Below, in pieces: positions 3,965-8,515 of a stretch of DNA of 64,000 nucleotides (its first letter is position 1; each line of letters opens with the position of its first letter). The notes under the pieces are model-generated. The model had not been told where the DNA came from. It made no database searches and saw only the letters and a list, made by a program, of their open reading frames with translations. Both the position numbers and the translations under genes were made by a program. The stretch is from Bacteroidota bacterium (GTDB taxonomy: Bacteria > Bacteroidota > Bacteroidia > UBA4408): assembly GCA_016718805.1 (NCBI GenBank), contig JADKCP010000003.1:455564-519563 (forward strand), in the 5' to 3' direction.

Positions 3965-6258
3965 TCATTCCTTCACCACCTTCTGCCCCCAACCTTGTCC
4001 TTTCAAAATATAAGTTCCGGCAGGCAAATGCTGGATGTTCCAAGTATAAGTTGAAGTTGAAATAGTTTTTGTTTCCAGCACTTTTCCATTGGCATTTATC
4101 AATTCTATTTTTCCTAATGTACCTGCATGTTGGTTCACAATGCGTAAACTTTCTTGCACCGGGTTAGGGAAAATTTGTAATTCAGTTTCCTTGAAATCTT
4201 TTACCTGCAAGGTATTTAGCACATTCACTACAATTGTATTAGTAGTAACAGCAGCGTTATAATCAAAATAAATATCTGCTTTATTTTGTATCGAATCTGC
4301 TACAGTCAATCCCAGTAAGGGATTTATTCTGAATTTTACAAAACCGTGTGATTCTAATTCATTGGTGTTAGAATCTGGCAGAAGAATATTTATAAAATTC
4401 CATTTCGCAACACCGTTCTCAATCCAAAGGTCATAGCTGTGAGAGGCAGAAATCATTTCCATACTTGAAACATTCAGCAACGATGAAAGTGTATCTATCA
4501 CCATTACTGCAAAAGCAGTATCTGTTCCTGTATTTTGAAAACGAATAATGTACTCAAGATAGCCTGTAGTATTCGGTAAAACAACTTCCGGTGAAACAGC
4601 TTTATCGTTCGGGTCAAATGAGCCGCGGATAATGTTGGTACTTTTACTGCTATTGTTTTGGGGAGTAGAATCACCTGTTATTGGTTCAATCCAAGCATAA
4701 GCATTGGCGGTATCTCCAAGTGTTGCATTTACAAAACCGAATCTGTAATTACTATATCACCTTGCTGAAAAGGATTCAATGAAGCAATGTTCCAAATCAA
4801 TGTATCACCATTAATTGTATTAGCAGTTGGAAATGCAGATAAATTGGATAGTTGAGATGGCTTCAAAAATTTTACATTCACATTTGAAATAATTTCGGTT
4901 CCCACATTCTGATAATGAATTTTATATTTTGCTTTAAACCCGGGGCGCAAAAAAGTAATGGAGGTCAAATCCATTTTTAAATCGTTGATGTTGGGTATAG
5001 GTTGCAAGCCAAAATAGAGGGTATCAACTGAACTTGCAGTAACATGAATAGTTTGAGAGGAGGAGGTAGATGCAGTAAAATAAGCTGGCACATTCACCTG
5101 AAAAGTAATAATTCCCGTATCACTAACTGCATTAAAAAATCCTGCACTATCGGGCCAGATGCCGTAATTATTGGAGTAATGAACGGGAACCGGCATTCCA
5201 ATCTCTAAGCTGTCTTTGGTTCCATTTCCATTCACATCATTGAAAACAAAACCTAGAGTAAAGTTGTAGTTGCAATTGCTATTTGAAGGCGAGCAAAACG
5301 GAAAACCATTAGAGCCTATAAGAGCCGAAAGGGGGAATGTTCCCTGGTTGGGGATGCATGTGATATTCGTATGGGCAATTCCATTGATTACTCCCCATGG
5401 CAAACTCCAAGGACCACGTGGAGAAATTTCAGGGAAACATCCAATAGGGTTATAGGTCCAGTTTGCAACTTCCATATAGCCTGGAATTATTGGTAATTGG
5501 GTTAATTGATTTTGTTGACAATCTAATCTTTTTAATGTGATTGGCAGCACTGGTAAACTTGTTAATTGATTTACCTGACAATGTAATTCGTATAACCAAT
5601 TTGGCAACACAGGCATGCTAGTTAATTGATTGTTTTTACAATCGATTCTATTTAGCGAATTTGGTAAAGTAGGTAAGCTAGTCAATTGATTGTTTTGGCA
5701 TTCTAACACGATTAATGAACTAGGGAGCGCAGGTAAGCTTGTCAATTGATTGGACCCACACTCTAATACGGTTAATGCATTGGGCAGCAATGGCAGACTT
5801 GTCAATTGATTTTGATAACAGTATAGTTCGATTAATGAACTTGGTAGAACAGATATACTGCTGATGTTATTATAGATACAATTTAAGATACGGATGGAGT
5901 TGGGCAATACAGGCAGCGTTGTTAGTTGATTAAAACCAAGGTTTAAATAGTTTAATGAATCAGGAAGTGCAGGCAGGCTTGATAAGTGAGTATTATAGCA
6001 GCCGAGACTTTTTAATGAGCTAAAAAATGCAATACCGGTCAAATCGTAAATAAACATATTGCTAAAACTCAATGCGGTCACATTTTGAATCACACTACAA
6101 TTGCTAATGAGAGAATCCTGTGGAGTGAAGCAGGTGGGATAATCTTGTTTAAGTTTATTCCTGAAAATTGAATCCGGCACCCAAAAATTTTGAGCAAACA
6201 AATTTGCATTAAGCGAAAAGAAAATCAAAAGCAAGCCGAAGTAAAATTTATGTTTCAT
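3965..6258 (-). pseudogene. LRR/T9SS protein paralog 3, interrupted by a single -1 frameshift in an A-run (about 4733-4736); otherwise full length (~764 aa)
   Basis: ORFs 4729..6258 (signal peptide plus ~8 LRRs plus middle domain) and 3965..4504 (C-terminal domain plus T9SS CTD) are collinear with paralog 2. The sequence acaaaaccgaatctg here reads acaaaaaccgaatctg at 1951-1966 in paralog 2. The distal ~780 bp is nearly identical to paralog 2. Confidence 0.65.
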
Positions 6259-6270
6259 AACCGAATTTTC

Positions 6271-6305
6271 TTAATTCTTAATTCTTAATTCTTAATTCTC
6301 AATTC
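6271..6305 (-). repeat. heptanucleotide spacer repeat, 5 units (ttaattc x4 + tcaattc)
   Basis: Read directly between the paralog 4 stop (6313) and the paralog 3 start (6258). Confidence 0.7.
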
Positions 6306-6312
6306 CCTTTCA

Positions 6313-8515
6313 TCATTCCTTCACCACCTTCTGCCCCCAGCCTTGCCCTTTTAAAATATAAGTTCCAGTAGGCAAGTGCTGCAAGTTCCAAGTGTAATTT
6401 GAACTTGAAATTGTTTTTGTTTCCAACACTTTTCCGCTGGCATTTATCAATTCTATTTTTCCTAATGCGCCTGCCTGTTGGTTCACAATGCGCAAACTTT
6501 CTTGAACGGGGTTAGGGAAAATTTGCATATCAATTTCCTGTAACTCCTTTACTTGTGTAGTATTTAGCACATTTACTACAATGGTATTGGTTGTTACCGC
6601 TGAGTTGTAATCAAAATAAATACTGGCAGCATTCGGTATAGAATCAGTTACCATCAATCCTGGTAAGGGCTTTATTCTGAATTTTACAAAACCGTGTGAT
6701 TCTAATTCATTGGTGTTAGAATCTGGCAGAAGAATTTTTATAAAATTCCATTTCGCAACTCCATTCTCAATCCAAAGGTCATAGCTGTGCGAGGCGGAAA
6801 TCATTTCCATACTCGAAACATTCAGCAACGATGAAAGTGTATCCATCACCATCACAGCAAAAGCAGTATCCGTTCCTGTATTTTGAAAACGGATAATATA
6901 TTCTAGAAAGCCCGTAGAGTTAGGCAAAACAGCTTCTGACGAAACAGATTTATCGTTCGGATCAATTGAGCCACTGATAATGTTGCTGCTTGTACTTTTA
7001 TTGTTTTGAGGAGTGGTATCAGCAACAATGGGCTCAATCCAGGCGTAGGCATTGGCAGTATCTCCAAGTGTTGCATTTACAAAAACTGAATCTGTAATTA
7101 CTATATCACCTTGCTGAAAAGGATTCAATGAGGCAATATTCCATATCATTGTATCACCACTAAATGTATTAACAGTTGGCAGTGCCGATAAATTGGATAG
7201 TTGCGGTGGCTTCAAAAATTTTACATTCACATTTGAAATAATTTCAGTTCCCACATTTTGATAATGGATTTTATAGTTTGTTTAAAACCTGGCCGCGAAA
7301 AAGTAATAGAAGTCAAATCCACTTTTAAATCGTTGATGTTGGGTAAAGGTTGCAAGCCAAAATAGAGTGTATCAACTGAACCTGCAGTAACATGAATAGT
7401 TTGAGAGGAGGAGGTAGATGCAGTAAAATAAGCTGGCACATTCACCTGAAAAGTAATAATTCCCGTATCACTAACTGCATTAAAAAATCCTGCACTATCG
7501 GGCCAGATGCCGTAATTATTGGAGTAATGAACGGGAACTGGCATTCCAATCTCTAAGCTGTCTTTGGCTCCATTTCCATTCACATCATTGAAAACAAAAC
7601 CTAGAGTAAAGTTGTAGTTGCAATTGCTATTTGAAGGCGAGCAAAACGGAAAACCATTAGAGCCTATAAGAGCCGAAAGGGGGAATGTTCCCTGGTAGAT
7701 GCATGTGATATTCGTATGGGCAATTCCATTGATTACTCCCTGGCAAACCCGCGACCACGTGGAGAAATTTCAGGGAAACATCCAATAGGGTTATAGGTCC
7801 AGTTTGCAACTTCCATATAGCCTGGAATTATTGGTAATTAAGTTAATTGATTTTGTTGACAATCTAATCTTTTTAATGTGATTGGCAGCACTGGTAAACT
7901 TGTTAATTGATTTACCTGACAATGTAATTCGTATAACCAATTTGGCAACACAGGCATGCTAGTTAATTGATTGTTTTTACAATCGATTCTATTTAGCGAA
8001 TTTGGTAAAGTAGGTAAGCTAGTCAATTGATTGTTTTGGCATTCTAACACGATTAATGAACTAGGGAGCGCAGGTAAGCTTGTCAATTGATTGGACCCAC
8101 ACTCTAATACGGTTAATGCATTGGGCAGCAATGGCAGACTTGTCAATTGATTTTGATAACAGTATAGTTCGATTAATGAACTTGGTAGAACAGATATATT
8201 TAAATAGTTTAATGAATCAGGAAGTGCAGGCAGGCTTGATAAGTGAGTATTATAGCAGCCGAGACTTTTTAATGAGCTAAAAAATGCAATACCGGTCAAA
8301 TCGTAAATAAACATATTGCTAAAACTCAATGCGGTCACATTTTGAATCACACTACAATTGCTAATGAGAGAATCCTGTGGAGTGAAGCAGGTGGGATAAT
8401 CTTGTTTAAGTTTATTCCTGAAAATTGAATCCGGTACCCAAAAATTTTGAGCAAACAAATTTGCATTAAGAGAAAAGAAAATCAAAAGCAAACCGAAGTA
8501 AAATTTATGTCTCAT
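6313..8515 (-). pseudogene. LRR/T9SS protein paralog 4, degenerate duplicate of paralog 3 (at least 3 frame disruptions plus an 81-bp internal deletion)
   Basis: Fragments 7838..8515 (N-terminus), 7227..7583 and 6313..7254 (C-terminus with CTD) are nearly identical to paralog 3. Small indels sit at ~7270 and 7690-7760, and ~7583-7838 lacks a single long open frame. About 81 bp (27 aa, ~1.3 LRR units) is missing at ~8196 relative to 5869-5950. Confidence 0.6.

Follow-up and report, generated by a model that had tools for sequence, protein, structure and literature searches.

How do the members of a tandem family of surface-protein genes come to match one neighbour along one part of their length and a different neighbour along the next? 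The question is raised by five head-to-tail paralogs, here called P1 to P5, which occupy positions 1-10970 of a 64,000-nucleotide (nt) stretch of DNA, referred to below as the window (contig JADKCP010000003.1 of assembly GCA_016718805.1, positions 455,564 to 519,563). Judged from their sequences, all five appear to belong to an array of leucine-rich repeat (LRR) surface or secreted-protein genes in an uncultured wastewater member of the Bacteroidota. An earlier note, made from the letters of the window alone, had read P3 as a patchwork produced by gene conversion, regarded P4 as a decaying duplicate of P3, and proposed that the array works as a set of donor cassettes. Here we report that the patchwork is real and highly significant, and that its form argues for gene conversion within a recombining array of complete genes. 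The damage that gives P4 and P3 the look of pseudogenes consists, for the most part, of probable errors in the assembled consensus.

Mosaic paralogs that arise by gene conversion are textbook knowledge for bacterial surface-protein families. Concerted evolution of such paralogs is known, for example, from the babA/babB genes of Helicobacter and the opa genes of Neisseria. Another arrangement is found in silent-cassette systems, among them Neisseria pilE/pilS, Borrelia vlsE, Anaplasma msp2 and Treponema tprK, in which a single expression site is accompanied by promoterless, 5'-truncated cassettes.

Results

A mosaic gene with an internal breakpoint

The mosaic was delimited from pairwise and four-way alignments, sliding identity and informative-site strings. 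All genes and tracts of the array lie on the minus strand, so that coordinates run downward from the 5' end of each gene. The 5' part of P3 (3965-6258) is nearly identical to that of P4 (6313-8515) over a block that covers 5037-6258 in P3 and 7383-8515 in P4, with a sliding identity of 98-100% apart from lesions. From 6258 to 5037 the two genes differ by 12 substitutions, half of which (6) fall within lesion clusters of P4, and by 91 gap columns; about 30 nt of the spacer upstream of their start codons are also closely alike. Downstream of this block P3 follows P2 (1192-3903) instead. Along 4416-5019 of P3, which corresponds to 1643-2247 in P2, 602 of 604 positions are identical (99.7%) and there is a single 1-nt gap, while the identity of P3 to P4 over the same 5019-4416 is only 88%. 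Beyond the tract the match to P2 drops to 88.6% over 4415-4180 and 94.6% over 4179-3941, a region in which short patches are nearest to other paralogs. Both identity blocks are thus internal, with lower identity on either side.

The informative-site string and a maximum chi-square analysis place the change from P4-like to P2-like sequence in the interval 4998-5037. When P3 is compared with P2 and P4, the maximum chi-square reaches 139.7 over 241 informative sites (permutation p <= 1e-4), and the longest concordant runs span 180 polymorphic sites for P2/P3 and 65 for P3/P4 (p = 5e-4 for each). Breakpoint analysis of the aligned paralogs, a kind of check that the earlier note had put forward, yields a significant breakpoint and rejects uniform divergence, and the block-wise identity between tandem paralogs that it had described goes far beyond chance. 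Its boundaries have to be redrawn, however: the switch had been placed at 4745, at the break between two open reading frames (ORFs) and some 290 nt too far 3'. The segment 3965-4745, said to match P2 almost base for base, does so only as far as the tract 5019-4416 extends, and not in the last ~450 nt; the segment 4745-6258, said to be nearly identical to P4, is so from 6258 to 5037, but not from 5037 to 4745, which lies inside the P2-like tract.

The sequence across the P3 junction is the same in three long-read assemblies from different samples, namely the window and two sister loci, L007 (GCA_016721255.1) and L088 (GCA_016717585.1). L007 is 99.5-99.9% identical to the window and carries at least 8 paralogs; L088 is as close, and its contig begins inside P3. 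At 3032-3056 of L088, equivalent to 2083-2059 in P2 of the window, four clustered substitutions change SAFPT to SALPT, the state found in P4, and break the identity of P2 and P3; they represent either a micro-conversion tract or an artefact of polishing across paralogs.

Patchwork along every gene of the array

Similar changes of affinity are found throughout the array. Painting of the window paralogs with 17 additional paralogs, taken from related loci, showed repeated switches of nearest neighbour along every gene. Positions 7475-7330 of P4 are 96-100% identical to P0, the second gene downstream of P2, which lies beyond P1 and outside the window, and positions 9422-9123 of P5 are 95-98% identical to P1. 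Read in this context, the P4/P3 and P2/P3 blocks appear to be the largest and most recent products of a process that pervades the array. Because the tracts are internal and bounded, and because nearest neighbours switch along the genes, conversion is favoured over duplication or one crossover; together with the shared junction, these features bear out the gene conversion between tandem paralogs that had been suggested earlier.

A single unequal crossover between P4 and P2 was considered as the origin of P3 and rejected. It would yield a chimera with the 5' part of P2 and the 3' part of P4, the reverse of what P3 displays, and it is also at odds with a P2-identical tract that is internal and does not reach the end of the gene.

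We propose that the shared 3' half, spacer and 5' end of the paralogs would provide the homology for recombination between them, that internal tracts would be copied from paralog to paralog by non-reciprocal gene conversion, and that whole genes would be gained or lost by unequal crossing-over. P3 is composed of a P4-type 5' 1.2 kb, then the 0.6-kb tract identical to P2, and then shorter patches, while P4 and P5 include tracts whose nearest relatives are paralogs outside the window. The two large tracts of P3 are young, with a divergence of 0.2-0.5%, and they are common to three strains that differ by ~0.1%.

Copy number and content in related genomes

The locus is anchored by a sigma-70 family gene (11161-12024, minus strand) just upstream of P5, which serves here as context only. 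The genome collection lists its exact protein in 55 blocks, and 22 of the contigs that carry it were read. A short-read assembly (L001) with flanks 98% identical to those of the window has at least four intact paralogs, which are only ~80% like P2-P4. Two more distant loci from European Nucleotide Archive (ENA) short-read assemblies (L002 and L004) have two genes each, and another from a Joint Genome Institute (JGI) metagenome (L003) has one. In L089 (GCA_963853145.1), where the sigma gene is 85% identical, there are 7 paralogs, one of them clearly degraded. The comparison of orthologous loci that the earlier note had recommended thus gives paralog numbers of 1, 2, at least 4, 7 or at least 8 at the same site, and the locus is hypervariable in both copy number and content.

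Despite the 15% divergence of its sigma gene, L089 shares long exact matches with the window: 398 nt between 6029-5632, in the LRR region of P3, and L089 10029-10426, and 242 nt between 10070-9829 and L089 3708-3949. These matches suggest that LRR segments have recently passed between species.

Other insertions are also present downstream of the sigma gene in several related loci (L006 11165-14461; L002 and L004 11714-13627; L003 13709-14255; L089 15100-15759). They include a GEVED and sorting-domain gene, a CHU_C gene, a ParE toxin pair and, within the array, a PIN-domain pair, and the site appears to act generally as a hotspot at which surface and accessory genes vary.

Lesions in P4 and P3

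As assembled, P4 is broken into three ORFs of 225, 118 and 313 amino acids (aa) and P3 into two of 509 and 179 aa. The largest lesion in P4 is an in-frame deletion with its junction at 8198/8199, which starts exactly at a CCTTGG motif and removes 28 aa, or 1.4 LRR units; it measures 84 nt, not the 81 bp first reported. A CC>TT change at 7841-7840 (site 7838-7841) creates a TAA stop where P3, L007 and the short-read contig L090 have CAA. Further downstream, a patch at 7697-7752 combines gaps of -2, -2 and -3 nt (7752-7741 and 7697), the 2-nt gaps falling on CCTTGG and CCATGG, with clustered substitutions, and a 1-nt deletion at 7293 (site 7284-7293) lies in a CCC/GGG context with neighbouring substitutions. 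Small indels had been noted at about 7270 and 7690-7760; they are present, but at the positions given here and accompanied by the additional stop. P3, previously taken to be an intact copy, is frameshifted by a 1-nt deletion at 4737, with four T residues (4733-4737) where P2, P4 and L088 have five. Restoration of one T yields a 764-aa protein.

These lesions are not the same from one assembly to the next. P4 of L007 has none of those seen in the window and a single A5>A4 frameshift of its own, and the 84 nt are present in both L007 and L090. The latter (positions 1-3247 of a megahit contig from ERZ22666005, found in 3 samples) contains the 3' end of P5, a 764-aa gene and the start of the next paralog. 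Over its P4-type 5' 1.33 kb the 764-aa gene is 100% identical to L007 apart from the A-run deletion of L007, with no lesions and an intact frame; its 3' 1.0 kb is 100% identical to P0, and the paralog that follows is the one lying beyond P0. Either L090 is a natural recombinant in which four genes are missing, or it is a de Bruijn graph chimera joined through the tract that P4 and P0 have in common; it says nothing on the 3' half of P4 itself. In P3, the deletion at 4737 is shared with L007 but not with L088, where a T4>T5 change is found at the counterpart of window position 4582. P3 of L007 has three further 1-nt indels, one in a run of T, one in a run of A, and the third an extra G at a CCTTGG site. 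Where reproducibility in independent data from the same lineage is taken as the mark of a pseudogene, neither P4 nor P3 qualifies, and the decay of P4 as a duplicate of P3 is not established. Scans of JGI metagenome contigs returned 0 matches for the P4 deletion junction and 0 for the T4/T5 context of P2 and P3; both results are uninformative.

Between the window and L007 there are 9 indels in the 9.7-kb array and 1 in 11 kb of flank (Fisher p = 0.008). Four of the nine fall on CCWWGG motifs (p ~5e-6), including all 3 such sites in P4, and the other five in runs of A, T or C. The indel-linked CCWWGG sites of the window are at 8199, 7752-7741 and 5936-5941, and this association hints that the organism has a CCWWGG methyltransferase whose marks disturb the base-calling of Nanopore reads. 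Systematic errors of R9-type Nanopore chemistry are known to occur at homopolymers and methylated motifs. The confinement of the indels to homopolymers, short runs and CCWWGG suggests unpolished Nanopore errors within repeats, which would have escaped correction because short reads cannot be placed uniquely in near-identical tracts of 0.6-1.2 kb. The neighbouring accession range includes records of a Danish study of wastewater metagenome-assembled genomes (MAGs) obtained by Nanopore sequencing, for which the pipeline comprised Canu, Racon, medaka r941 and one round of Racon with Illumina reads (PMC8012365). From these comparisons we consider it reasonably likely that most of the lesions are consensus artefacts, and the lesion in P3 is probably one as well. 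Phase variation at the frameshift sites was also considered; it is unlikely, the runs being only 4-6 nt long.

Predicted products of the array

The paralogs were delineated by ORF listing and translation, and have a common architecture: a predicted signal peptide is followed by 20-residue LRRs in varying number, by DUF11 and DUF7619, and by a type A sorting domain of the type IX secretion system (T9SS). Pfam and NCBIfam matches above the cut-offs were obtained for LRR_4, DUF11, DUF7619 and Por_Secre_tail/TIGR04183. PF18962 scores 41-42.5 bits in P2, P4 and P5 against a cut-off of 27, and TIGR04183 reaches 38.2 and 38.6 bits, its cut-off being 23. The signal peptide was judged by eye from the N-terminus, MRHKFYFGLLLIFFFVNTNLFA-QN, which begins with basic residues and continues through a hydrophobic core to an A-Q junction. 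DUF11 and DUF7619, two beta-rich domains, separate the LRRs from the sorting domain. The sorting domain makes the paralogs predicted T9SS-exported surface or secreted proteins, and they may act as adhesins or in binding. In a profile scan of the genome-collection contigs with the C-terminal module, the matches listed are relatives at 29-44% identity, spread over Flavobacteriales, Saprospiraceae, Chitinophagales and Cytophagales.

In P1, P2, P3 and P5 the LRR anchors are spaced 20 residues apart, with the consensus LxxLxCxxNQLTSLPxLPxS, and the per-position profile fits. Both features agree with the 20-residue period and the consensus LxxLxLxxNxLxxLPxLPxx by which the YopM-type class of LRR is recognized; the LRR region matches YopM itself at E = 2.6e-74, and the best matches among solved structures are YopM and SspH2. 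Entropy within the repeat is high at unit positions 2, 3, 5, 7 and 8, which are the 'x' positions of LxxLxCxxN. Assignment to the IpaH/SspH/SlrP effectors with a NEL E3-ligase domain was rejected: the NCBIfam scores are 299.6 against a cut-off of 1243 bits and 168.8 against 1113, with only the LRRs matched. Since the C-terminal half consists of DUF11, DUF7619 and the sorting domain, with no NEL ligase domain, the paralogs are not effectors of this kind.

Array layout, spacers and promoter

By the count from L007 the array comprises at least 8 genes, directly downstream of the sigma-70 gene. P5 (8556-10970), its first gene, is intact and encodes 804 aa; its orthologue in L001 sits in the 98%-identical flank, and a lookup of its protein in the genome-collection contigs gave no exact match. 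P2 is intact as well (903 aa, with a predicted signal peptide, 16 LRRs, DUF11, DUF7619 and the T9SS sorting domain), and an identical copy of its protein occurs in two NCBI MAGs. A P2-type gene of 703 aa (L091, positions 115-2226 of a megahit contig from ERZ27290360) is exactly 10 LRR units shorter than P2 of the window and, in the 3' 1675 nt, 99.3% identical to it; the difference reflects either LRR copy-number variation or a short-read collapse. Of P1 (1-1144, with its ATG at 1144) the window holds only the 5' part, with a predicted signal peptide and some 15 of the 20-residue LRRs, as the gene runs off the window start; the full gene is found in L007, followed by at least three further paralogs. 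A few kb from the array, at 14612-17353, there is another large gene (913 aa) with a T9SS sorting domain, whose orthologues in relatives match BNR/Sortilin-Vps10 and Por_Secre_tail.

The genes of the array are separated by spacers of only 40-61 nt. The one between P4 and P3 (6259-6312, minus strand) consists of a series of 7-nt AGAATTR units and, after them, an A-rich leader, and the equivalent spacers at 8516-8555, 3904-3964 and 1145-1191 (minus strand) have the same unit and an A run just before the ATG. The number of AGAATTR copies, from 2 to 6, is different at each junction; the repeats could be a slippage-prone element or a mere by-product of recombination. Upstream of P5, a promoter-like box at 11006-11013 on the minus strand (TAGTTTTG), 43 nt from the ATG, fits TAnnTTTG, the -7 box consensus of the Bacteroidota, and P5 is the only paralog with such a box within 200 nt upstream. 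A search of the coding strand inside the array found no terminator-like site. A scan for sigma-70 consensus promoters was set aside, being not meaningful for Bacteroidota and giving no more matches than shuffled sequence. By its arrangement, the array may form one long operon of complete genes co-transcribed from the P5 promoter.

Discussion

The evidence is best accommodated by a recombining tandem LRR array with a conversion mosaic, in which the lesions are mostly consensus errors, a reading to which we assign a probability of roughly 0.75. That P3 arose from P4 by plain recent tandem duplication with ordinary divergence, and with no conversion, we regard as virtually out of the question. 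The spacing of 2341-2348 nt between the P4 and P3 units and the 99-100% identity of their 5' 1.2 kb do match a duplicated unit, but identity falls abruptly to 78-93% in the 3' half, where P3 has a 0.6-kb stretch identical to P2, and the breakpoint tests refute uniform divergence. Assembly or polishing might alternatively have created the identity blocks, through collapsed or chimeric consensus between paralogs: the source region is rich in repeats and was assembled from a metagenome with long reads, one of the sister contigs breaks off within P3, and some clustered differences between assemblies look like cross-paralog polishing. This is nevertheless very unlikely, as the same P3 junction and block structure recur in the three assemblies, short-read contigs recover the 5' block of P4 as well as the P5-to-P4 and P3-to-P2 adjacencies, and the blocks, at 0.6-1.2 kb, are below the typical length of long reads. 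Equally hard to credit is the donor-cassette model, in which silent cassettes in partial decay would feed programmed, unidirectional segmental conversion into a single expressed copy. Pervasive tract-wise mosaicism, a recognizable -7 box within 200 nt at P5 only, and variable residues at the 'x' positions of the LRR motif are what it would lead one to expect. All copies are full-length, however, each with its own ATG, predicted signal peptide, full set of domains and sorting domain; the short spacers without a terminator-like site look operon-like; four to seven intact copies are present in related strains; and the 'decayed' state of P4 is not reproduced between assemblies. The retention of an intact 5' end by P4, which had been offered in support of the model, is the opposite of what a classical silent cassette exhibits.

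A more serious alternative concerns the lesions alone, namely that P4, and P3, are strain-specific pseudogenes decaying after a recent duplication or conversion. P4 of the window has at least five separate lesions with a net change of -8 nt, so that no single correction restores its frame; the rest of the window is made up of long uninterrupted ORFs; the array of L089 holds a clearly degraded paralog; and the frameshift at 4737 is common to two assemblies. We still consider real decay possible but doubtful, because neither the sister assembly, at 99.5-99.9% identity, nor a short-read contig has the lesions, because they are located on CCWWGG motifs and homopolymers and the frameshifts form a separate set in each assembly, and because a strain divergence of ~0.1% leads one to expect well under one neutral indel per 1.2 kb where four to five are seen. 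Several points weigh against the recombining array with consensus errors that we prefer. The outgroup arrays are rearranged to a degree that prevents the conversions from being polarised as donor to recipient, and the use of multi-mapped short reads in polishing could make paralogs look more alike than they are. Nanopore errors do not typically take the form of an 84-nt deletion or a CC>TT nonsense doublet, the 4737 frameshift appears in two assemblies although the identical context in P2 was called correctly, and the case for artefact is built on assembled sequence. L090, the short-read contig free of lesions, could be a de Bruijn graph chimera of the kind described above. Finally, the tie of the source MAG to the study of Singleton et al. 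was drawn from accession ranges and contig names, and the sister accessions are absent from the supplements of PMC8012365.

A bolder version of the recombining array is also conceivable, in which the locus would serve specifically to diversify the LRR binding proteins that an environmental member of the Bacteroidota displays through the T9SS: tracts would be shuffled among at least 8 paralogs and shared between species, and the strain-specific frameshifts at short runs and CCWWGG motifs would be real on/off switches. We hold this to be improbable; if true, it would provide combinatorial surface variation, for instance against predation by phages or protists.

Among described systems, the closest case appears to be the tandem LRR array of Flavobacterium psychrophilum. 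As set out in the portions of PMC8400371 and PMC5682007 consulted, it extends over ~21 kb and encodes LRR cell-surface proteins with the TIGR04183 domain, its gene number varies between isolates, and its products are lost from the secretome of gldD and gldG mutants, which are affected in gliding and T9SS-related functions. The likeness is one of published description: same-strand tandem LRR genes with TIGR04183, a Bacteroidota host, a repetitive region that is hard to assemble, and a gene number that differs between strains (five in the window, at least eight in L007, and 1, 2, at least 4 or 7 in relatives). The present array is distinguished by the presence of DUF11 and DUF7619 after the LRRs and ahead of the sorting domain, by its YopM-type 20-residue repeats and by its uncultured wastewater host. 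Tract-level mosaicism and the sharing of segments across genomes, documented here, are not described for the F. psychrophilum array in those portions of PMC8400371 and PMC5682007.

With YopM, IpaH, SspH and SlrP, whose repeats are of the 20-22-residue 'LPX' type, the paralogs have repeat length and consensus in common; they differ in having no NEL E3-ligase domain and in their predicted export by the T9SS, where those proteins use type III secretion. The resemblance to silent-cassette systems lies in tract-wise segmental recombination among clustered homologues of surface proteins, but here every unit is a complete gene and the only asymmetry is the promoter-like box upstream of P5. The array is like babA/babB and opa in that internal tracts are copied between full-length paralogs, giving chimeric genes and phylogenies that are incongruent along the gene. 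Unlike those genes, it is a tight tandem array, so that unequal crossing-over also alters copy number, and it belongs to an environmental bacterium with no known pressure from host immunity. Surface-protein mosaics made by conversion are already known; what is new is their occurrence in an uncultured lineage and with a different stalk module, DUF11 plus DUF7619.

Two points of wider relevance follow, neither of which changes the current understanding of gene-family evolution. One is a caution for the use of long-read metagenome assemblies, in which near-identical tracts of paralogs escape short-read polishing, and errors at homopolymers and motifs mimic the decay of pseudogenes. The other is biological: in an abundant uncultured wastewater bacterium, the diversification of a family of T9SS LRR surface proteins can be followed at the resolution of single tracts, with conversion tracts, changes in copy number and the sharing of segments between genomes all documented at one locus.

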